Part shown: one piece after another, positions 3,001 to 49,800 of the stretch
How the letters are laid out: each line of letters starts with the position of its first letter
Numbering within the stretch: position 1 is the first letter of the stretch
DNA from: a virus
Lineage: Duplodnaviria; Caudoviricetes
DNA length: 53,760 nucleotides
Reading direction: 5' to 3' (one strand)
Virus record (IMG/VR): IMGVR_UViG_3300046000_006960
Location: 1-53,760 of that record
The notes under the pieces: model-generated
What the model was told of the DNA's origin: nothing
Seen by the model: the letters and a program-made list of their open reading frames with translations, nothing else
Database searches by the model: none
Position numbers and translations under genes: made by a program

Positions 3001-3576
3001 CCCATCCGCTCCATCTGTAGCCCAAAATGCGGTTGAAGATATATTTGCCCAAAGATTTCCTTCTTTAACGGCTTTAGCTGTATAAACAGGCATTAATTCA
3101 GTATTAATTTTTTCATTCATACTATCCACTGCTTTAATCCATGGATTGTTAAAAGCGGTGTCTATAAACGAATGTTCATCTTTGCCAGAAATTAAATCTT
3201 GAGTATTTTCAGCTGTAGCTTGAATCATCCCTCCAATAACTCCAGGTATTTTTGCAATTTCAGCTCCAGCCTTAATTATAGCTCTTCCTGGTGTTTTTAA
3301 AAGTTGTTCTGTTCCTGATTGATTTTGAGCCCTTAACTCGTTATAAGGATCTTCAGCTTTTAAATCTACAAACTGATCTAAAAATGGATTAGTTCCTTCT
3401 CTGACTTCATCTTGATTATAACTATTAAAATTAACTCTGTGTTTTTCTTTGTTAAATGCATTATTTACAACTAGATTTCTTTTTTTCTTTGTATTTTGCT
3501 TTTTAAAGTTTTCATCTAAAGTATTAAGAAAGTTTTTATCATAACTGCCTAAAAGTCCTTCATCTTCTTCTTCCAT
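1..3576 (-). CDS. Giant virion cargo/ejection protein, N-terminal part only (runs off the window; possibly the virion RNA polymerase-associated giant protein)
   Basis: Absent from the ORF track because it has no stop in the window. ATG at 3576 (MEEEDEGLLGSYDKNF...ELRAQNQSGTEQLLK...AFWATDGADGLGFIIG). Frame read open at both ends (...IENDLQSKEEQQGLEEEQVV at position 1), not checked codon by codon throughout. Position after the cargo genes is typical of Crassvirales. No RNAP catalytic motif seen in this part. Confidence 0.7.
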   Translation of the reverse strand, partial: MEEEDEGLLGSYDKNFLNTLDENFKKQNTKKKRNLVVNNAFNKEKHRVNFNSYNQDEVREGTNPFLDQFVDLKAEDPYNELRAQNQSGTEQLLKTPGRAIIKAGAEIAKIPGVIGGMIQATAENTQDLISGKDEHSFIDTAFNNPWIKAVDSMNEKINTELMPVYTAKAVKEGNLWANISSTAFWATDGADGLGFIIGMMAPGAGFEYLGLGSKLIGAAANSAKLAKYTSMAGKAEEGVSALKFMGITGKTIDSGLAITSNTLLEAGAEAKGVGDDLERKMPDFIKSYVGSTDHQQKVAKKLQELDVQRRNGSIDINKYNELSAKASTDVAEEAFKEQRALAMRNTFVTNVGILLGPNAIMHKAIWGKAAQKFERSAEQGIKGIVNRAGRSVGKVGKALLTEGFGEEGLQTTTENFNVKRAMQNKLGKKDNRSYVDQISETVGDFAKEYVNTVSSVEGQKAIFLGGALGGPMMSYQGRKEDVANRKYTNEVLDNIDSQITNFNDIFDNKIYQQNEDGSYKYKKDKDGNDTTERLLDNKEVYNLAKSLNFSEQQSKLFDLAVQTGNTEVVDKLKREAIFNMVLPSIHNGEIGIKALEQKLREDVKLNEIVERDQSSDEKDKSKNFMNEILETAKYLQKQNQKFGDFSRDVISLDNESANQDQKDRFLNRLNASYLNSKHKLRANETKLQKLEEKRNNIFDELGIDPLYDEAAEFPVANMKGGTISNDEMIARAERTKEAIKNNELLSKTNEEYNALKKEIEKSKKDISDIWQGKNINETFDDFVKKDNELSAKTSDEAIQEADDLINNIKSAENKEDLDKMLSRPHTPLDTKEYYDKVAENEILDDLSRSVNENDSLENLQLNLEKLKSINISSSKISDTVKSLEEKITKKIQDRDEFKTFLSEIVDSFDQEVTALNDFMSEIDSEINDLVKQKNAIIKGLDAQDKSPRGRNAKLIKELIKDSQDALKKVEKQIEYLEGIKGEIKKDLKQLDKNIEYVFNRYEQIEKTDFNSIAEIIDYLEQNKEIFKEHRHSIERLLATKLTSEEHIEYLENSIEGLEGYADALRNVIKSLLTSEGKIKNENVADHKFIKEELIKTTKALFEAKQNLKSEKEKLKRLEKSIIDKLAITSIDNELKFWNDLKTYKKENINPLVENPYIKEIIKQKEEELNNQEIENDLQSKEEQQGLEEEQVV

Positions 3577-3578
3577 AA

Positions 3579-5606
3579 TTAATTTTTATTATTTGGATAT
3601 TTAGTAAGCAATTGAGAAGGTTTTACGCCTCTTTTTATTGCTCTATAATTTAATGCTTGTTGAGCATCGCTATCACTATTATATCTTGCTGCTAATTCTT
3701 TATTTGTTAAATCAGCATAGGCATTATTTACTAGTGAAGTATAAACTTCTTGTCCTTGAAAGTTGCCAGTAATTCCATTAACTGTTCCTTTGTTTTTATA
3801 AAAATTAGCAATAGCTCCTGTTAAATTTTTATAACCTGGAGCAGAACCAGTATCTGCTGAATTTGTAAATCTTTTTAATTTAAATGTCACAGTAACTTGT
3901 TTTTTAGAACCTCCATATTCATCTTTACGCTTAACGCCTTGAGTGTCATACTCATTTGCGTCTTCATTGGTAGTAAATACAGCAGTAATTTCTGGAGATT
4001 TATTGTCTCCATATGTTTTTATATTACTTATTTTAAAAGATTTTTGATCTGAATTTTTAAGTAAATCTTGAATATTAGCAACATCTTCATCGGTCACATC
4101 TTTTCTAAAGCCTCCAGTAGTTTGAACGCCAGTTAAATCTAGAACGCTAGATATATTTGGAATTCCTTTTAATACCGTGGCAACATTTTCATTATGTAGA
4201 TTCCACTCTCCCTCTTCTTTAGGAGTAGACGGCATGTAAGAATAATTATGTCTTAAAGAAGATGATTTTTGCCAAGCATCGTTTTTAAGTTTTTTTCTTT
4301 GTGATAAAATTTTATCCATATAAGATAAATCTTTATCTTGCATTATTAATTTTAAATCAGGATCAGATTGCTTTCCTTTAAAAGACCCTACGCCTTTACT
4401 AAATAACAATCTAGGTAAAATACTTGGATCTTTTTTAACCGCAATAACTTCTTCTTGAGTCATATTCATTTTTTTAGCAAGTCTTTCCCATTTTGAATAT
4501 TCTTTTTTAAATGTTATGTCGTTGGCTTTGTAATCTTTGTTTTGAGTTAACTTAGCATCTGCTTCTCTTCTTAATTCAATTAAATCATCTAACTTTGCTT
4601 GATCTGCAGGATTTAAGCTTTTAGAACTAGACAATCTTTTTATTTCACTTAATACGTCTGAATATTCTTCATAATTAGTAGCGTCGCTTTTTATTTCAGT
4701 ATCGTTGCTAATTATTTGCCCAGCAGGACCTTCTTCGTCAGATTTTTCAGGTTTTGGAGGAGCGTTATAGTTTGCACTTTCAGATATTTTATTAATGTCT
4801 GAATTTTCAAGCATTGAATTAAAGTCATTAATAATTCTATCTTTATTTAATCCTATTCCAGCATGTGTCGCCCATTTTTTACCCTCGCCATTTGGATTGT
4901 CCCATGTATCCAATGCTGAATTAAGTGCAGCTTGAACTTGATCAGTGTTTTTAGATTTAATTCTATCTCCATTTCTAGTAACTTCCCAAAAACTACCATC
5001 AGGACCATATTCTAAATGATGTCCAGCTGAAGAAATTCCCTCAATAGTTTTTCCTAATATTGAATGAGCTCTAGATAAATACTGACCATAATCTTGATAA
5101 GCAGGAGCTCCAAGAGGTTCTATGTTTGTAATTTTACCATCTTTAAATCCAGTATAATTATTCTCAACATAATTGTTCCAATTTTTTTCAGCTTGATCTT
5201 TTCCTATTTTAGAAACTTCAGTTGCATTTTTTATGTAATCATCATGTTCTTTGTTAAAAATAGCTTTTGCTGCATTTATTTTACCAAATTCTCCCATAGG
5301 AGAAACTAAATCTTGATACTTTCTATTTAAAGCAATTGTTTTACCAATCATATCATTGTTTATTCCGTGCTTAGATAATTCAGTAGCAGTATTATCTAAT
5401 TCTGACTCAATACCTTTTTTTAATTCTAAAGCTGTGTCATAATGAAATTTCAATGGATCAACTTTCGCTATACCAGCTCTTATTAATTCGTTTTCAGCTA
5501 ATAATTTATCATGCTTTTCACGTTTCATCATTGGAACAAAAGCTAATTCCTGCATAGTTTGAGGAGTATATCCTGAAACTGTAATATCATCATAACGATT
5601 ACTCAT
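3579..5606 (-). CDS. Putative virion cargo/ejection protein
   Basis: 675 aa, hydrophilic and helical. Lies between the xxGG-repeat cargo protein and the giant protein, as in crAss-like gene order. Confidence 0.55.
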   Translation of the reverse strand: MSNRYDDITVSGYTPQTMQELAFVPMMKREKHDKLLAENELIRAGIAKVDPLKFHYDTALELKKGIESELDNTATELSKHGINNDMIGKTIALNRKYQDLVSPMGEFGKINAAKAIFNKEHDDYIKNATEVSKIGKDQAEKNWNNYVENNYTGFKDGKITNIEPLGAPAYQDYGQYLSRAHSILGKTIEGISSAGHHLEYGPDGSFWEVTRNGDRIKSKNTDQVQAALNSALDTWDNPNGEGKKWATHAGIGLNKDRIINDFNSMLENSDINKISESANYNAPPKPEKSDEEGPAGQIISNDTEIKSDATNYEEYSDVLSEIKRLSSSKSLNPADQAKLDDLIELRREADAKLTQNKDYKANDITFKKEYSKWERLAKKMNMTQEEVIAVKKDPSILPRLLFSKGVGSFKGKQSDPDLKLIMQDKDLSYMDKILSQRKKLKNDAWQKSSSLRHNYSYMPSTPKEEGEWNLHNENVATVLKGIPNISSVLDLTGVQTTGGFRKDVTDEDVANIQDLLKNSDQKSFKISNIKTYGDNKSPEITAVFTTNEDANEYDTQGVKRKDEYGGSKKQVTVTFKLKRFTNSADTGSAPGYKNLTGAIANFYKNKGTVNGITGNFQGQEVYTSLVNNAYADLTNKELAARYNSDSDAQQALNYRAIKRGVKPSQLLTKYPNNKN

Positions 5607-6159: not shown

Positions 6160-9100
6160 TATCTTCTTCCTATTTTACTCATTTTTAAATATCCTCCATA
6201 AGCATGCTGAGTAGTTTCTCCAGCAATTTGTTCTGCAGTTTTCTTTGCTCCAGTCTTGTTATGAACATAAAATTTACCATCCCAAGTATATCCTAAAGCC
6301 TCTGCTAATGAATTTTTATTTACTTCTTCTTTCCCAACAGATCCTAAATCTGTTCCAATTGATCCAAGTAATTTAGACTTTTGATTTCTATAATTAGCTT
6401 GGTTTCTATCATTAATTTCTAATTGATTATTAGATTGACCTATATTAGCTTGATCTACACCTAAATTAAATTGTTGTCCTGCTAAATTTTGACCAGCATT
6501 ATATTCATTCATTTTTGCATAAGCATCACTCATTCCTCTAATTCTTCCAGCTGTAGTTCCAACTAAATTAGCTCTTAATGCAGATTCTGAACCAGCAGTT
6601 GCATTTGTTAATCCAGCAACACTATTATTCATTTCATTAGAAACTTGATTTTGAATACGATTTTCATCCATATACGTTGGTTTGTATCTGTTAGATAATC
6701 TATCTAATACAACTCCTGATGGTTTTTTAAGTTGAGATAATTGAAATGCATTCATAGCAATTGGAGCATATTTTAACATTTTACTACCATTTCTTTCAAA
6801 CCAGTTATCGCTAGATTCTCCAGTATCTCCTCCTTTATCAAAGTAATTCATATAGCCACCTTCAGCTTTTATATCTTTTGTAGAAGAAGATTTTTCAGTT
6901 CTACAAGCATCTCCTGCCGCAGAAAAACCATTCTTTAAGTTTTGTTGTCCAACATCTTTAGCTTTTTGCTGCTTTTCAACATATTTAGAATATTCAGCCT
7001 CAGTTTTGCCTGGATTTTCTGACAACCATTTATCTATATAATACCTGTCTGGAGCATTTTTAGTGTAATTATACATTGTTTGATATTCTCTCAATTGAGG
7101 AGTTGTTCTTATATTTCCGTTCTCATCTTTTCTAAGAACTTGTGCAGCTTCTTGAATAAACTTATCATTTCTCATTTCAAGAGGAGAATATCCAGATGAA
7201 TTAAATCTTATATTTTGACCAGAATTAGTAGGAGTAGTTACATAATTTACTGGAGCATAATTCATTGGAGCAACATTATTGGGATTAGATACTGTAAATT
7301 CCAATTCTCCTCCTATAGCAAATTTGTCACTAAAAGCATTATTTGCAGATGTAGCACTAGATCTTGCTTGTTGAACTTTTTGTTTTTCAAAAGTAGAATT
7401 ACCTGTAAACATTCCTACCATAGGCATATCGCTAATGTTTCCAGTTTCTAATGCTGATCCAATTCCTTTAATAGTTCCTAAAGGACTAACCATAGAAGCA
7501 ATTCCTTTTCCTATTTTAGAATCTCCAGCAATACCAGTTATTAATGAATCAGCAGCTCCAGCAGCTGCTCCAGCGCCAGGTATAAAAGCATTTAATGCAG
7601 TAGTAGTCATATTTTTAGCCGCATCTGCCCCTTTGTCTCCAGGCTGAGCAATTCTATTAGATTGAAATTGTTTTCCTATTCCGTCAACAGCACCAAACAT
7701 TCCTTGGTTTTCATCTAAAAAATCAACCATTCCGCCTTTGTCATATCTTTTTATAAAACCTCCATAGGCAGACATTCCAGGTTGTTGCATTTCTCGCTCC
7801 ATTCCTTCTTGAGGCATTTCTTGTTGTCCAACAAATTCTTCCATTCCTTGAGGAACTTGTTGATTTTCAAAACCAGGAGATTGTTGTGCATTTTGAAGTA
7901 TAGCCTGTTCTTTTTGAGCTTCTTCAGCTTTTATTGCCTCTTGAGCTTGTTTTAACCTGTTTAAATGCTCTTTGTGAGTCATCTTATCAGGATTACTATT
8001 TTTATCTTTAAAAGGCTTATCAATCACCTTAGAAGCTTCAGCAAATGTTTTACCTTTAATTGAGTTTGGTAATTTAAATTGTTTTACTAAATCTTCATTA
8101 ATATATAATCTATCTGAGTAAATATATTTACCATTTGGTGTTTTAATAGAAGTTTCACCTTGCTCAACCATTGCGTTTGGTCCTTGAGGTATTCCACCAT
8201 TTGGATTTTGCTCATGAGTACCTCCTTCGTTAAATTGGTTTAAGGTACCACCTTCTGCGTATCTTTTCATATTGTTATTTAAATAATTGTTGTATTTAGC
8301 ATTTAAGTTGTTATTTATTTGACCACCATCAGCATGTTTAATTAAGCCATTACTACTATAATAATCAGCTAATTGCGCATTAGGTATTTGAATTTCTTCT
8401 CCAGTTTTTCTTCCATATTGCACAGCTTCTCTTGGAGTTAATTTACTTAATAGTCCTAACTCATTTTGAATAACTGTAGGGCTCACAAAAGCATTGCCAT
8501 TATTGTCTGTCGAGTATTGCATTAGGTGAGTTGTTCTTGAACCGTCATCGTTTACAATGTAAGGATATTCACCTGGATTTAATGCTCTTTGAACAAAATT
8601 TTTATCTTTATTTCTTTCAGTAATAACTCTAGACATTAGTTCATTTTCATAAGCTGATCTTACTGGTGGCTCTATGTTTCCTCCAAGTTTATATTGCTTT
8701 ATCAATCCAATATTAGGAACGTCAATTCCAAATGTAATTTTTTTAATCCACGGCCCGTTTTCTAACGGTTGAAAATCGTCAACTATTTTTGATAACTTTG
8801 CTTTAGGCATTCCTTCAACTTTTATTCTAGAATTAAATTCAGCTAAAGCTTTTTTAGCCTCATTATAATCTTCAAATTTTACATTTGTTGCTCCTGGAAG
8901 TATTTTGTCATTATTACTAAATATTTTGTTTTTACCTGAATTATTTAATGGTATATATTGTTCTTCATTTGTCCACTTAAATTGTTTAGGATTTTCTGCT
9001 CTTCGCATCATGTTATAAAAACTATCTGTACTTAAAGATTTTTGTTCAAGAATTTTTGATCCTTTAGGTATAAATTGCTCTAAATGCTTATAAGCTTTAC

Positions 9101-35452: not shown

Positions 35453-37687
35453 TTAGTAATGTTGCTTTCTTGCATTCCAGTTTCTTTCAAAGAATTTATC
35501 ATTAGAAACTTGATCTATTTTTTTGTGCTGATTAGCTATAGCCGCATTAGTTCTTTTTACTCTATCTTCTCTAAGCAGAAATAACATACCTCCTGCAGAT
35601 ACACGGTCAAAGTTGCCATCACTATTCCAAGCAACACATTCTTCTAAATAAGGTATGCTTCTTATGTGATGTAGCTTTAAACTATTATCTTCTTCATCTC
35701 CTTCGTTATATTGCGTAAGCATGTATTGTGCCTGAAGTAATCTTCCCCATTTATTTATCTCTCGATTAGCATGAGTTCCTTTAGCTTTGTTTCCATATAG
35801 ATTAGTAGCTTTTACCATATCCATATCTTTAAGTATCTGAGGCACATCGCATAAATAATGCAAACAATTTCTTGCATCAAAATAACTAAACAAACCTTTT
35901 AAGTTGCTTTCGTAGTTTGCTTCTGCATTATAAAATTTAAGAAGTCTTAATGACAGTTCATAAGCATCATTTGCTAATCTTGGTCTTCCTGTATATTCAG
36001 CAACAATTCTATCTGTAAAAGTATCCATTATTAAAATACTAAATAAAGATGTTCCTGTGTCTGCGTCAATAGGGTCAATACCAGCAATATATCTTCCTCT
36101 TTGTATTTCTCCATGACCATTTTTCTTTGGCATTTCAAATATTTCAAGACAACCTGTTCTATCTGTATCAGAACTATCATAAGCTCTTAACGGATATTTA
36201 TCAGATGTAGGTTTCCATTCAACTTCACCTGTAGGGCCGTAAACTAATTCTCCAATATAATGTTCTGCTAAAAATGATTCCTTTTTAGGACCTATGCTTT
36301 CTAGATAGTCTTTTATATCAGCTACAGGAAATACTGTTCCCTCAGTACGCATAATTGCCTCCTGTGGCGTTATAGGTTCCTCTGCTTTCTTTTGAGTAAT
36401 AGCTCTGGCATCAGATGAATTATATTTGACTTCATGTCTATCTAATAAAATTTCAATCAAAGCTTTTATTACATCAGGCTCACCATTTACTTCATCATAA
36501 CATTCATTACGATTTAAATATGCTCCCCAAAAGAATCCACATTCTAAATCGCCATTTGCTCCTTTATCAAAAACATTAGGGATTCCTAATATATTATAAG
36601 CTCCTGGTTTATAAAATAGTTTCTCAGACCCAGCAAATGAGGCTCCTTCAACTCCACCGGTTCCTCCTGCAAGCATAAATCCAAATGATACTCCACCATC
36701 CTCTACTGCTTTTCTGTTAACGTTCCATGCTTTTTCAAGATTAGGAAACAATCCATCTTCTTCGTAATGTATTAATGGCCCACGAATACCCCTTGCTTTA
36801 TCAGGGTTATCTTTTAATGATATCCCAAACACAGATGATAACAATCCTTTACGAGATCCATATTCATCTTTATATCCTAATTGAATATTCATTTCTTTTG
36901 TGGCATCAATAGTACGCATACGAGGCAAAGGAGTATGTTCTGCTATCCAGTCTAATGTATCTAATACTTTACCCCATATTCCTTTATCTCCAGACAAGAA
37001 TCCTTTATCAGATGCTAAATGGAAATTAGGATTACCAGATCCAGGAAATACATACATATTTCTTGGTGACTCTGATGCATTCTTGAAACTAAATCCAATA
37101 CCACGAGTTTTTAATACTTTACCATGTTTACCTAAACGTTTAGCTCTTGCTGTATAGTGAAAATAAAGATAATCACCTAACCATGGTTTAGCAAACTTTT
37201 TAACACGCTCTCCTTGACTACGCTCTCCTTTACCACTTTTAGCAATAGTTTGAACCAACCAAATAGGGCTGTAATTCCAGTAAAAATACAACTCGCCAGG
37301 AATCCATTCTCCATCAGACTCTCTAACTATACCATACTTCCATTTAATTAATTCTTGCTTCCAATACTCTGCGTATTCTGATTTAGGGTTACTATTTGGT
37401 TGCAGATTAGTATACCTTCCATTGTTCTCAAAGAATATAGCTGGTTGTCTAAAATAATCCATATCTTCAAGTATGTGAGGATTAGTGATGTCAACATCTA
37501 TCCTATTATCATCATACAGTTCTGACTTTGGCCTATCTTTAGCGTAACCACGAATACTCTCGTGAGCAATAAGATTTTTTACAAACTTAATAGTTGATGT
37601 ATATTCTACAAGGTTTTCATATACTTCTCTTGGCAACGATTGTCTTAATTCATCAGTTATTACAGTTTGGTATTTATTTAATTCCAT
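35453..37687 (-). CDS. terL: Terminase large subunit
   Basis: LKTRGIGFS (Walker A-like), IHYEEDG (Walker B), GGTGG, nuclease motifs YIAGIDPID and NFDRVSA. Confidence 0.92.
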   Translation of the reverse strand: MELNKYQTVITDELRQSLPREVYENLVEYTSTIKFVKNLIAHESIRGYAKDRPKSELYDDNRIDVDITNPHILEDMDYFRQPAIFFENNGRYTNLQPNSNPKSEYAEYWKQELIKWKYGIVRESDGEWIPGELYFYWNYSPIWLVQTIAKSGKGERSQGERVKKFAKPWLGDYLYFHYTARAKRLGKHGKVLKTRGIGFSFKNASESPRNMYVFPGSGNPNFHLASDKGFLSGDKGIWGKVLDTLDWIAEHTPLPRMRTIDATKEMNIQLGYKDEYGSRKGLLSSVFGISLKDNPDKARGIRGPLIHYEEDGLFPNLEKAWNVNRKAVEDGGVSFGFMLAGGTGGVEGASFAGSEKLFYKPGAYNILGIPNVFDKGANGDLECGFFWGAYLNRNECYDEVNGEPDVIKALIEILLDRHEVKYNSSDARAITQKKAEEPITPQEAIMRTEGTVFPVADIKDYLESIGPKKESFLAEHYIGELVYGPTGEVEWKPTSDKYPLRAYDSSDTDRTGCLEIFEMPKKNGHGEIQRGRYIAGIDPIDADTGTSLFSILIMDTFTDRIVAEYTGRPRLANDAYELSLRLLKFYNAEANYESNLKGLFSYFDARNCLHYLCDVPQILKDMDMVKATNLYGNKAKGTHANREINKWGRLLQAQYMLTQYNEGDEEDNSLKLHHIRSIPYLEECVAWNSDGNFDRVSAGGMLFLLREDRVKRTNAAIANQHKKIDQVSNDKFFERNWNARKQHY

Positions 37688-39126
37688 TCGTTTTTATTTA
37701 AAACAATACAGTCTGTTGATAAAACTGTTTTAGCAATAGATACTGCGTTTTCTAATGCACACCTAGTAACCTTAAGTGGATCTATGATATTTTGTTCAAA
37801 CATATTTTTAATATGATTAGCATTAATTATGTTTTTAGGCGTATCTAAAGCTTTAAAAATAGCACATGCTTCAGGATACATAAACATATCCATAATCATA
37901 TCGTTAGCCCAATATAATGCTAATCCACCGCCTTCCACAATGCCTTCTTCTAATGCGCATGCTACAGCTTTAACCGCATCATCATATCTATCGTACTTTT
38001 CTTTAACCTCAATTTCAGATCCACCGCCTACTTTAATTAGGGCAACTTTAGCTGTTAGATTTTCAATACGTTTATTAATGATTTCTACATCATGCTTAGT
38101 TAGTTCTTTTGATTTAGATAACTCTGTAAGATTATCTATAATATCAGCAACATCAACATCGTCATGCTTAATTAGTAAAGAATTATTTTTAGTTATTTTA
38201 CAAGACTTTAGTTTTCCAAAAGTATTTGCTGTAGATTTGCCAATGGCAGTCATTATTTCTGCTCCAGTAAAGTCAGATATGTCTCTAAGGAAATCTTTTC
38301 TTACAGGGCCAAATCCTGGTGTTTTAATAACACATAATTGAATGTTACCACTCAATACATTAGATTCTAACTTACGTAATTCTTTTTCAACTATATCTTC
38401 TGTTATAATTAATAGCGGTTTCCCTGATTGTGCAAATGTATTTAGTACTCCTTGTAATGGTATTAAATCTGTTAATTTACCATCTATAATTAATACGGAT
38501 GGATCGATAAATAAACACTCTCCTTTTTTAAGGTTATTTACGAAATGCTTAGAAAAATAAGATACATCTAATTGCATTCCATCAATTAACTCTACAGAAT
38601 CTTTTTGATTAGTAGACTCCTCAACTTTAATTATATTAGAAAAATTGTAAGCTTGTTGAATAATATCGCCAATCTGTATATCGTTATTAGCAGATATACT
38701 TGCAACATATTTAATCTCTTCATGTTTTAATTCTTTTGAATTAAGTTTTAATTGTTCAATTACTTTTGGTATAATTTCATCAAACGCTTTATTAATTTCA
38801 TTTGAATCAAAATCTTTTAAGTTTTGTATAAAAGCATTAGCTAATACAATTGCAGTGGTAGTTCCATCTCCAGCTAAATCAACTTGCAATTCAGCAACTT
38901 CTTTTACTAATTGTGCGCCTATGTTTTCTATTGCATTTTTAAAACTTACCTCTCTAGCTACAGATACGCCGTCCTTTGTTATTTTATATTTATTAAACTC
39001 AGTGCTATCTGGTATAATTACTGTTTTACCATTAGGCCCCATTGTTTTTGACACTGCGTCACATAACTTTTGGATTCCATTAAACAATAAGTTTCTTGCT
39101 TCTTTTTCAAAGTATATTTCTTCCAT
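37678..39126 (-). CDS. groEL: Phage-encoded GroEL-like chaperonin
   Basis: TMGPNG, ITKDGVSVA, AGDGTTTA, PGFG, IKVGGGSE, EEGIVEGGG, IIDPLKVTRCALENAVS. Confidence 0.93.
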   Translation of the reverse strand: MEEIYFEKEARNLLFNGIQKLCDAVSKTMGPNGKTVIIPDSTEFNKYKITKDGVSVAREVSFKNAIENIGAQLVKEVAELQVDLAGDGTTTAIVLANAFIQNLKDFDSNEINKAFDEIIPKVIEQLKLNSKELKHEEIKYVASISANNDIQIGDIIQQAYNFSNIIKVEESTNQKDSVELIDGMQLDVSYFSKHFVNNLKKGECLFIDPSVLIIDGKLTDLIPLQGVLNTFAQSGKPLLIITEDIVEKELRKLESNVLSGNIQLCVIKTPGFGPVRKDFLRDISDFTGAEIMTAIGKSTANTFGKLKSCKITKNNSLLIKHDDVDVADIIDNLTELSKSKELTKHDVEIINKRIENLTAKVALIKVGGGSEIEVKEKYDRYDDAVKAVACALEEGIVEGGGLALYWANDMIMDMFMYPEACAIFKALDTPKNIINANHIKNMFEQNIIDPLKVTRCALENAVSIAKTVLSTDCIVLNKNEWN

Positions 39127-46699: not shown

Positions 46700-46971
46700 A
46701 TTCTGGTAGTTCATTACCATTTGTTAAGACAGTAAATTAATAAAAAACTACCAATGCTCGCTGTTAGGCTACACACACAACAAAAAGGGTTTATATTACG
46801 ATAGCAAACCAGAAACCCTGAAAGACCAAGGTTGGTAAATAGTAGTTCGCGGGAGAGCACCTACTTTAAAAATAGCGATCCCATCATGGGGGTGCCTGGT
46901 TTTGACAGGTTACTAATAATTAATACAATCAGCCAGAGAGATAACTGTAAACTAAGGTGAATTAAATAAAC

Positions 46972-47073
46972 GACAAAAATACAACAGCTCAAACAAGAGC
47001 AAACATGCAAGTGGTTCATAACATCTTAAATGGTGGAACTTCAGTATCAACAGAAATGTTGATTGCTGCGTAA
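46972..47073 (+). other. tmRNA tag reading frame, (A)DKNTTAQTRANMQVVHNILNGGTSVSTEMLIAA
   Basis: Resume codon GAC inferred from the AAATAAAC context. 33 codons, then TAA. Confidence 0.8.
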
Positions 47074-47435
47074 TATTTTTAGATTATTTTAAGGATTTCC
47101 TTGTTAGATTAAACAAGGTGGTGGAATCACTGATTAATCAGTTGACCTCGTGTATCTAAACACATAAAACTATAGTGAAGCTGTATAAATTGTATTAAGG
47201 AATGTAATTTGGACGGGAGTTTGAGAACGGACTCACTATGTAGGGATATGTAGTTAAAAATTGGAAGAATTGCTGGAACACTAAAGCCATTTAGGTATGT
47301 ACAAAATTACAGTACACTAAGTAGTCAATCAGCAGCCGAGCTTACTGGCGGAAGTAAGAAGGTTCAACGACTAGGGAATCTAAGGATAGCCCACAGCCTC
47401 CAACACCTAGAACAGGTGATGATATAGTCTAATCA

Positions 47436-47855
47436 CTAGTGAAAACTAGTGCAGAAAAATAGCCTTTCATAAGCTAATTTTCTATCGTATTCTATTATAG
47501 AATATTTACCATTCTTTTTAGTTACAATATTATGATACTTTAATATAGTATTGATTCTATGTAATTTTTTAGAATGATGAGAATTTAATAATTCACAAAG
47601 CTTGTAACATACTTGATTGCTACTTGCAGATAAAGAATAGCCAATAGAATGGCTTGTCTTTTTAGCTGGTTTTGTACTGATTGAAAGTTTTAAATTATAA
47701 TTTAACAATAAATATTGTTGAATTTCTAATAAAAGATTTTTATCAGTATTTGTAAAATCAATTTTAATACAACGAAATTTGTCATCTTTAGATTGATAAG
47801 ACATTGTAATTGAGCCATCTGCATCAAAAAAACCTGAAATGTAATTTAAGTCCAT
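47436..47855 (-). CDS. Single-motif LAGLIDADG homing endonuclease, antisense within the intron
   Basis: MDLNYISGFFDADGSI motif and IDFTNTD. 139 aa. Confidence 0.9.
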   Translation of the reverse strand: MDLNYISGFFDADGSITMSYQSKDDKFRCIKIDFTNTDKNLLLEIQQYLLLNYNLKLSISTKPAKKTSHSIGYSLSASSNQVCYKLCELLNSHHSKKLHRINTILKYHNIVTKKNGKYSIIEYDRKLAYERLFFCTSFH

Positions 47856-47889
47856 AATAATAGGATAAGGGTTATATATACGTTAGGTG

Positions 47890-47920
47890 CAAATATACAA
47901 AATTTAATTACAAAAAACAA
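47890..47920 (-). promoter_or_regulatory. Bacteroidota -33/-7 promoter inside the intron, driving the LAGLIDADG gene
   Basis: TTGT-N19-TATATTTG, 34 nt upstream of the ATG, same spacing as the six other copies. Confidence 0.7.
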
Positions 47921-48257
47921 GTAAATGTTAAATTATTTTATAATAATTTTTATAATGAATTATAAATGCGATTCTCCCCACCTCCACTATATTTAATCTC
48001 TAAAATGGCAGAGAATAGGATTATATTAAAGTCACTGCATCCACTAACGATAATTGTATTTATATACAATTGTTTATTAAGTCTAAATCAGTCTAAACAA
48101 TATAATGCAAATTTGTGAGCAGTACGCCACTCACTTAAATAGAACAAAATTAAGGGTCTTAATAAATGTTAAAGATATTGAATCTGTCTATTATATATAG
48201 ACCCTTATTTTTTAAATTATAAATTATAACAAAATTATTAACTAACAATTAAATATT

Positions 48258-49446: not shown

Positions 49447-49521
49447 GTCTTAATCGTACAATAGTGAGTATTCTCTATATTTTTTATAGAGACAATTTAG
49501 GTTCAAGTCCTAATTAAGATA
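49447..49521 (+). tRNA. tRNA-like element with an aberrant U-rich anticodon arm (Lys-UUU-like or pseudo-tRNA)
   Basis: Acceptor GTCTTAA/TTAAGAT, D stem GTAC/GTAT, anticodon stem CTCTA/TAGAG around 9 nt TATTTTTTA, T arm TTAGG-TTCAAGT-CCTAA. Confidence 0.6.
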
Positions 49522-49591
49522 TCGTATTTAGATAAAAGAAAAAGGTGCGTTCGTCAGTACAGGGAAGAGGTCCTATCTAAATTGGAACATA

Positions 49592-49663
49592 ATCTGTATC
49601 TGCTAAGGGTAAGCTGCCTAGCTTGGTGTTAGGAGAACGTGGGTTCGATCCCCATTACAGGTT
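49592..49663 (+). tRNA. tRNA-Pro(TGG), non-canonical
   Basis: Acceptor ATCTGTA/TACAGGT, anticodon arm CCTAG-CTTGGTG-TTAGG, T arm GTGGG-TTCGATC-CCCAT. Confidence 0.7.
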
Positions 49664-49800
49664 CAAATAAACTTCATAATGTTTATTTATTAGTTAGTTA
49701 ATAATGTGAGTGAAACTTAGCGTCCAGTCTGTGGAATAGGAGTAGCTCACATTTTTTAAATATTAGAAAACAATTAAAAACAATAAAAAATTAAATAATT

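Follow-up and report, generated by a model that had tools for sequence, protein, structure and literature searches.

A predicted phage tmRNA gene split in its T-loop by a group I intron with an antisense homing endonuclease gene

Transfer-messenger RNA (tmRNA) genes interrupted in the T-loop by a group I intron are an established form in bacteria. A 2020 preprint counted 343 intron-form tmRNA genes, and a 2025 survey (PMC11915505) reports 883 unique intron-form sequences from 21 phyla, with insertions at four subsites of the T-loop. Position 7 is given there as the main and previously known subsite, and position 3 as occurring only in the class Bacteroidia. Homing endonuclease genes (HEGs) are present there in 23 of 844 cases, with 19 located in P7.1 and four after P9. 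The survey also screened RefSeq viruses, and the portion of its text available to us mentions neither a viral intron form nor the orientation of any HEG. The locus described here lies at positions 46888-47986 (+) of a 53,760-base IMG/VR virus record, called the window below, and is, on sequence grounds, a phage tmRNA (ssrA) gene split in its T-loop by a group I intron. The original prediction for this locus had called T-loop introns rare and Clostridium botulinum their classic case, a view made outdated by the survey's count.

Several described systems resemble the locus in part. The group I intron of C. botulinum, reportedly placed in subgroup IA3 by the 2002 tmRNA Website paper, likewise lies in a tmRNA T-loop. 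It differs in belonging to a chromosomal gene of Bacillota and in its subsite, as the site previously known is position 7 (PMC11915505). The position-3 tmRNAs of Bacteroidia (Marinoscillum luteum KCTC 23939, locus L113; an Ekhidna sp. metagenome-assembled genome (MAG), L112; and the Bacteroidota MAGs L110 and L111) share the subsite TT/CGA, where the slash marks the insertion point, and a core with P7.1 that is 60-74% identical to the phage introns. These genes are chromosomal and encode short tags (GESNYAMAA), and their HEG, where present, is in the sense orientation and runs into the 3' splice site. The window, in contrast, has a phage carrier, a tag of about 33 residues, and an antisense HEG. 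A Flavobacteriaceae MAG (L114) is the closest bacterial relative, with 69-78% core identity and an HEG that shares 59% amino acid identity and is also antisense. Its intron, however, is inserted at T-loop position 7 (TTCGAT/T) and has a P1 of UCGAU with GUCGA.

Phage-borne ssrA genes are listed only in mycobacteriophages (Bxz1, Cali, Catera, and others; DS6A) and Bacillus phage G in the available text of a 2014 paper (PMC4131195). Those phages are unrelated to the one considered here and have Actinomycetota and Bacillota hosts, and that text mentions no intron in their tmRNAs. Nearer to the window is Cellulophaga phage phi14:2, a crAss-like member of the Steigviridae. Its tmRNA is homologous (72% identity over the first 150 bases, with the same conserved 30-base block and the same tag family) but uninterrupted, with an ARAGORN call and an Rfam score of 46.0 bits. 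The phi14:2 gene (ARAGORN, L001 2502-2971) is unannotated in KC821624.1, where four small hypothetical coding sequences, gp011-gp014, are placed across L001 2383-2990 (KC821624.1 3912-4519).

The window is estimated to be 53% complete. It encodes a major head protein, a portal, and a large terminase, and is about half of the genome of a freshwater crAss-like phage. The stretch was found in metagenome runs from lakes, drinking water, and other fresh water. The phage origin assumed originally agrees with these genes, with the IMG/VR record, and with the homology to phi14:2. The split gene consists of the following parts (L numbers are locus labels).

46888-47221, plus strand: tmRNA exon 1, with the 5' acceptor strand GGGGGTG, the pseudoknot and tag region, the 5' T-stem strand GGGAG, and T-loop bases TT (ARAGORN on the spliced form; partial Rfam match).
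46930-46959, plus strand: conserved 30-base block in the pseudoknot 1 region, upstream of the tag, identical in 106 IMG/VR contigs and phi14:2 (exact-match scan; Rfam alignments).
46972-47073, plus strand: tag reading frame, with the ARAGORN resume codon GAC at 46972, 33 residues ending in LIAA, and the stop codon TAA at 47071-47073.
47222-47968, plus strand: group I intron of 747 nucleotides (Rfam Intron_gpI; removal restores the tmRNA; homologous introns at the same subsite in L027, L029, L075, L079, and L107).
47969-47986, plus strand: exon 2, with T-loop bases CGATT, the 3' T-stem strand CTCCC, the acceptor strand CACCTCC, and the discriminator A.

The anatomy of the gene can be read directly from the DNA. 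The tmRNA begins at 46888 with GGGGGTGCCTGGTTTTGACAGG. Positions 47211-47221 read GGACGGGAGTT, and 747 bases later positions 47969-47986 read CGATTCTCCCCACCTCCA. Joining 47221 to 47969 in silico yields a T-stem of GGGAG with CTCCC, a 7-nucleotide T-loop (TTCGATT), and the 3' acceptor strand CACCTCC. This strand pairs with GGGGGTG (46888-46894) in a 7-base-pair acceptor stem that includes G3:U70, and A47986 serves as the discriminator. With the intron removed, the locus has the tRNA-like domain that characterizes tmRNA (RF00023). The insertion falls between T-loop bases 2 and 3 (TT/CGATT), which is the position 3 subsite when numbered by the legend of Figure 2 of PMC11915505. The spliced tmRNA would be 352 nucleotides long (46888-47221 plus 47969-47986). 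That removal of 47222-47968 restores a T-arm and an alanine acceptor end had been claimed originally, and the claim needs a single correction: CCA is not encoded in the gene, where the discriminator A is followed by CTA.

Given the sequence without 47222-47968, ARAGORN calls a 353-nucleotide tmRNA from 46888 with the tag DKNTTAQTRANMQVVHNILNGGTSVSTEMLIAA, followed by a stop. It calls no tmRNA in the whole window or in the unspliced stretch, and its only calls in the window are tRNA-Lys and tRNA-Pro. Infernal searches with tmRNA and group I intron models had been proposed as a check. On the unspliced sequence, Intron_gpI (RF00028) matches 47184-47451 (+) at 80.2 bits (E = 2.4e-20; gathering threshold 50 bits) over the full model, positions 1-253, and the tmRNA model matches in part, as given below. 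Run over the whole window at gathering thresholds, Rfam reports neither tmRNA nor Intron_gpI and only one tRNA. The 80-bit intron match emerged only with laxer filters on a 1.7-kb stretch, because the speed filters hide the AT-rich intron in the scan of all 53.8 kb. Since ARAGORN and default Rfam are both silent on the gene, the expectation that gene finders would miss it is borne out.

The gene belongs to a family of phage tmRNAs. The block at 46930-46959 has an exact match in 106 IMG/VR contigs, many of them 85-117 kb long. A complementary acceptor-strand search of the 42 loci that lack an uninterrupted ARAGORN call found mostly uninterrupted genes of about 320-470 nucleotides, or genes cut at contig ends. 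Of 104 genes examined, 95 close the tRNA-like domain, and 94 of these 95 have G3:U70; a few closures, such as that of L029, are spurious. The acceptor stem occurs in 12 variants and the T-stem in 22, almost all of them compensatory. In each of the 105 related genes a tag frame of 30-49 open codons starts just past the conserved block and ends in (V/L/I/A)AA or (M/L)VA; tag start and length are approximate, as the resume-codon calls of ARAGORN differ between relatives. By these sequence measures the phage tmRNA family behaves like a tRNA-like RNA under selection. The Rfam tmRNA model gives scores above its threshold for two members that lack the intron, 58.4 bits for L100 and 56.4 for L015.

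Worth recording is the length of the phage tags, which are very long and share the core ANM..V...L; in the window this frame spans 46966-47073. The commonest bacterial tag length is given as 10 amino acids in the part of PMC11915505 available to us. Directly upstream of the intron-less tmRNA of L015, positions 7392-7498 (-) match Atu_At1, an Rfam family of Rhizobiales small RNAs, at 57.2 bits (gathering score 60).

A BLAST search of the 106 loci with the window intron gave five positives (L079, L027, L029, L075, and L107), in each of which the intron directly follows exon 1. The four complete genes (L027, L029, L075, and L107) have the junctions ...GTT/T... and ...AAAATG/C(G/A)A..., which is the same subsite, and introns of 696-703 nucleotides. 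The L079 contig ends within the intron. Exon 1 of the window is 81-83% identical to exon 1 of L100 and L079. The closest intron-less allele, L100, shares the downstream flank of the window gene and is 81% identical to it in exon 1. Intron-less alleles in related phages, for which a search had been suggested originally, are thus represented by L100, by a contig from an independent run (X5, below), and by about 100 family members. A second scan of IMG/VR with a degenerate intron-core pattern returned 18 contigs.

L027, L029, L075, L079, and L107: already found in the first scan.
L125 and L131: intron-form tmRNA at subsite 3, with an ARAGORN call after splicing.
L128: subsite 3, with the 5' end cut by the contig end.
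L130: subsite 3.
L121 (oriented 1402-1936): subsite 3, with a 224-nucleotide intron that has no open reading frame (ORF); T-arm and acceptor closure and Intron_gpI, no ARAGORN call when spliced.
L120 (oriented 3219-4201): subsite 7, with an antisense LAGLIDADG ORF; T-arm and acceptor closure and Intron_gpI, no ARAGORN call when spliced.
L122, L123, L124, L126, L127, L129, and L132: the same core outside a tmRNA context, with apparently protein-coding sequence upstream.

Intron_gpI scores 83-103 bits in L120, L121, L125, and L130. From both scans, up to 12 IMG/VR phage contigs appear to carry an intron-form tmRNA, with subsites 3 and 7 both represented; relatives without the intron, phi14:2 included, number about 100. 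ARAGORN calls none of ten phage genes when unspliced and five after in silico splicing (the window, L027, L029, L125, and L131). The introns of the two phage clades are 73-75% identical. The intron lineage may also live in phage protein genes, as the seven cores outside tmRNA suggest; the sequence upstream of the core in L123 and L124 reads like an HNH-type motif. Among deposited phage genomes (50,697 records) the intron was found in none, and the sole match was 37 bases in a Vibrio phage.

The intron has the elements of a group I ribozyme, placed as follows.

47217-47234, plus strand: P1, in which exon GAGUU (47217-47221) pairs with the guide GACUC (47230-47234), with a U47221-G47230 wobble at the 5' splice site.
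47223-47229, plus strand: P10 guide GAGAACG, which can pair with exon 2 at 47969-47976.
47235-47451, plus strand: catalytic core, from a structure drawn by hand on alignment A1.
Core, first part: P2 at 47235-47254; P3 at 47261-47267 with 47397-47403; P4 at 47271-47276 with 47329-47334.
Core, second part: P5 at 47280-47283 with 47322-47325; P6 and P6a at 47336-47362; P7 at 47369-47373 with 47425-47429.
Core, third part: P7.1 at 47374-47392; P8 at 47404-47418; P9 at 47434-47451.

Alignment A1 holds six phage introns and runs from exon 1 (-10) through P9. The helices were drawn with the Rfam alignment as a guide, with P7 as a pseudoknot and P7.1 as a hairpin between P7 and P3'. In A1, 98.3% of 354 cells of the P1-P9 model form standard pairs, against 31-41% of cells in a control with partners slid by 1-3 columns. 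Two-sided changes were observed in 15 of the 59 pairs, where shuffles gave a mean of 8.8 and none of 500 reached 15; the six sequences fall into two clades, so these compensatory changes amount to few independent events. P4, P6, and P7 are invariant in A1 and therefore uninformative on covariation, and P7.1 has two covarying pairs. The bacterial relatives, judged by eye, add further covariation outside the 15-pair count, with P4 as UGCUGG with UCAGCA versus UGCAAG with UUUGCA. The centroid fold of the core recovers P1, P2, P4/P5, P6a, P7.1, P8, and P9. Subgroup IA, to which the intron had been assigned originally, is defined by the extra helices P7.1 and P7.2 between P7 and P3'. In the window a single hairpin, P7.1 (47374-47392), occupies this interval, and there is no P7.2; the assignment is tentative.

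The splice sites are conserved as well. Between T-stem base -4 and the guide (A1 columns 7-23), three sequences have a GC pair, two have AU, and one has GU. This exon-intron pair of P1 covaries and tracks the T-stem sequence. The U-G pair at the splice site is present in all six A1 sequences. In the window the terminal (omega) G is G47968, and a -1 U and a terminal G are retained in every complete phage and bacterial relative tabulated. The P10 guide and exon 2 CGAUUCUC form seven pairs with one bulged A, at -6.6 kcal/mol, which is the best P10 duplex among ten exon-2 sequences (the nine others range from -1.0 to -4.3). The group I core, the U-G wobble at the junction, and the possible P10 were all part of the original prediction and agree with these results.

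One gene within the intron had been overlooked. It lies on the opposite strand.

47436-47855, minus strand: LAGLIDADG homing endonuclease gene of 139 amino acids with a single motif, between P9 and the 3' splice site, its last codons overlapping P9.

The 139-residue product matches Pfam LAGLIDADG_3 at 37.9 bits (cut-off 22.5) and LAGLIDADG_1 at 28.2 bits (cut-off 23.1), and the acidic residue of the motif is present (GFFDADGS). Single-motif LAGLIDADG proteins act as homodimers, and by analogy the same is assumed for the window endonuclease. A PDB sequence search found no close solved relative; its best matches, 4z1x and 4efj (E = 5e-4), are weak and confined to the N-terminal motif. Each of the five complete introns from the first scan has an intact LAGLIDADG ORF in antisense orientation, as do L120, L125, and L131. 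The window protein has 59-64% amino acid identity to those of four first-scan phage relatives and 59% to that of the L114 intron. Antisense HEGs have been described for nuclear rDNA group I introns.

L079 and L130 have a different antisense ORF at the same place within the intron. Among PHROGs, the L079 ORF (9598-10116, minus strand) matches endonuclease and HNH families (E = 3.9e-20), and Pfam gives no match; the ORF of L130 (intron at 793-1565 of the oriented locus) is similar to it by eye. The L079 core is the one closest to that of the window, with 87% identity over the aligned core and 92% in the BLAST segment. Sequence comparison indicates that the endonuclease cargo has been swapped, LAGLIDADG for HNH-type or the reverse, between otherwise close introns at the same subsite. 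The opposite-strand gene would be expressed separately. Its product most likely cuts the T-arm DNA of intron-less tmRNA genes, upon which the intron would be copied in (homing). The predicted endonuclease activity is well supported.

A search for the core pattern in one genome per species (185,579 species) matched six records, all from Bacteroidota: Marinoscillum (two), Ekhidna, the Flavobacteriaceae MAG, and two other MAGs. All six matches are located in tmRNA genes. Five of these genes were spliced in silico, and four gave ARAGORN tmRNAs with the tags GESNYAMAA or GESNYALAA. Five of the introns are at TT/CGA (that of L111 from the exon-1 junction alone) and that of L114 is at TTCGAT/T. L109, L112, and L113 have a homologous LAGLIDADG gene on the sense strand after P9, with 34-35% amino acid identity to that of the window, and the L110 intron is 255 nucleotides long with no endonuclease gene. 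In L111 (oriented about 870-1000) a sense LAGLIDADG ORF starts normally, breaks off, and is followed by unrelated sequence; decay, rearrangement, or a join made in assembly may account for this.

Across the core, phage and bacterial introns are 60-78% identical, and the L027 group is nearest to L114. The intron is sporadic in hosts: in the class of L113 it was found in the L113 genome only, and the 400 further genomes sampled from that class lack it. The kinship of the phage introns with the host tmRNA introns suggests exchange between the copies of this gene in phages and in hosts.

We consider it very probable that the locus is a phage tmRNA gene with a mobile T-loop group I intron that is removed by the following route. 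The precursor would be transcribed across the intron, and the intron would fold into P1-P9 with the P7.1 hairpin. An external guanosine would attack after U47221, held in P1 by its wobble with G47230. The freed exon 1 would in turn attack after G47968, with P10 assisting, and the exons would be joined. The product would be a 352-nucleotide tmRNA whose acceptor stem has alanine identity (G3:U70). Host enzymes would trim its ends and add CCA, and alanyl-tRNA synthetase, the ribosomes, and SmpB of the host (the last an assumption) would use the RNA for trans-translation, appending about 33 residues that end in LIAA. Splicing, inferred from sequence and covariation, and the tmRNA activity are both well-supported predictions.

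Several results weigh against this route. The Rfam tmRNA model, scored on unspliced DNA only, finds just the 5' part of the gene (46895-47218) at 21.9 bits, where the gathering score is 47. ARAGORN is silent on five of the ten phage genes after splicing; among the 106 loci it finds an uninterrupted tmRNA in 64 and misses many uninterrupted members. No SmpB gene is present in the 53%-complete window. In P1, own and foreign exons cannot be told apart by duplex energy (own -6.73, non-own -6.19). P10 is convincing in the window, L107, and L110 but discriminates weakly across the family, where the own pairing has -4.39 versus -3.23 kcal/mol for non-own pairings (sd 2.2). The folding energy of the core is modestly better than that of shuffles (z = -1.94). 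Transcription of the antisense endonuclease gene could in principle interfere with the tmRNA precursor. Finally, there is no RNA run among the runs that hold the stretch.

The foremost alternative is a dead gene, in which the intron splices poorly or never, the phage makes no working tmRNA, and the locus serves to park a selfish element. The exons, however, retain an intact T-arm, tag frame, and G3:U70 acceptor stem, and the compensatory changes keep all helices, the exon-intron pair of P1 included, despite the 73-75% identity of the clades. The -1 U and terminal G are kept in all relatives. A dead gene would fit the lack of RNA evidence, the weak P10 of several relatives, and the absence of the intron from about 100 of the 106 first-scan loci, so that it is dispensable. 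We judge this alternative improbable.

Less probable still, and very unlikely in our view, is a two-piece RNA whose halves remain unligated and are held by T-stem and acceptor pairing, as in permuted two-piece tmRNAs. Natural two-piece tmRNAs exist (PMC11915505), and the split in the window does fall in a loop flanked by two helices. Yet the known forms arise by circular permutation and not by insertion into the T-loop, according to the available text of the same survey. The group I core, the guide, the U-G pair, and the terminal G would have no role in such an RNA, and they are nevertheless conserved with covariation.

The arrangement has support from independent DNA. A contig from run X1, possibly the source sample, is identical to the window over 46934-48050. 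Runs X2 and X5, from other studies, hold contigs with about 5% divergence that span 47090-48007 and 47090-48047, respectively, intron included. One further X5 contig matches exon 1 exactly to 47221 and then continues with exon-2-like sequence; by its sequence this contig is an intron-less allele from the same water. Assembly artefact is ruled out by the independent contigs. The idea of a chimera, or of a bacterial ssrA-intron fragment misjoined to phage DNA, could draw on the presence of the intron lineage in Bacteroidota tmRNA genes and on the resemblance of the L110 tmRNA 5' end to that of the window, but it has next to no probability left given that contigs from other runs and studies independently show the same arrangement, that eleven other IMG/VR contigs (several of 85-134 kb) have it within the same phage tmRNA family, that exon 1, with its 33-residue tag, is of the phage family and not of the host type (GESNYAMAA), and that the head, portal, and terminase genes are on the same contig. 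X24, a run presumed to be RNA, probably consists of DNA, and its matching pieces are all short and diverged.

Other features of the window were recorded in passing. Genes for tRNA-Lys(UUU) and tRNA-Pro(UGG) lie at 49447-49664 (+), 1.5 kb downstream of the tmRNA, and Rfam at gathering thresholds reports the second only. A 482-amino-acid ORF at 37678-39126 (-) adjoins the terminase gene and matches a PHROG family annotated as chaperonin GroEL at 386 bits. A sigma-70 promoter scan gave 16 sites versus 10.5 expected, with a consensus that is uninformative for Bacteroidota and crAss-like phages.

The kind of gene is already described and by now frequent in databases: intron-form tmRNA is known in bacteria, and this subsite is known for Bacteroidia, the class to which the host probably belongs. 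Three aspects appear to be unreported, namely the recurrent virus-borne intron-form tmRNA at subsites 3 and 7, the relationship of phage introns to host tmRNA introns, and the antisense endonuclease gene swapped between LAGLIDADG and HNH-type. The literature consulted on phage or intron-form tmRNA contained no intron in a phage tmRNA; the supplementary tables of PMC11915505 may list viral entries. Phage annotation pipelines will miss such genes or call spurious small ORFs in their place, as happened for the uninterrupted gene of phi14:2. The phage carrier, the phage-host kinship of the introns, and the turnover of endonuclease cargo deserve specialist attention.

A phage intron with a homing endonuclease is also found in PhiPA3, a jumbo Pseudomonas phage, where the intron reportedly interrupts a protein-coding gene. 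The PhiPA3 intron endonuclease interferes with a co-infecting phage, according to the available text of PMC11620839. It is possible, though on balance doubtful, that the T-loop introns of Bacteroidota have a second home in phage tmRNA genes and are shuttled by them, with the endonuclease acting as a weapon. The presumed target, the tmRNA T-arm DNA, is common to the ssrA genes of hosts and of the many intron-less phages. Such a role would explain the two T-loop subsites and the presence of the introns in both phages and hosts. It would also explain the varied cargo, which may be an antisense LAGLIDADG gene, an antisense HNH-type gene, a sense LAGLIDADG gene, or none. If true, a phage with the intron would itself be immune, and on infection could cut the ssrA of rivals in the same cell and possibly that of the host. 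Such cutting would spread the intron together with flanking markers, and could disable ribosome rescue in the rival or the host.

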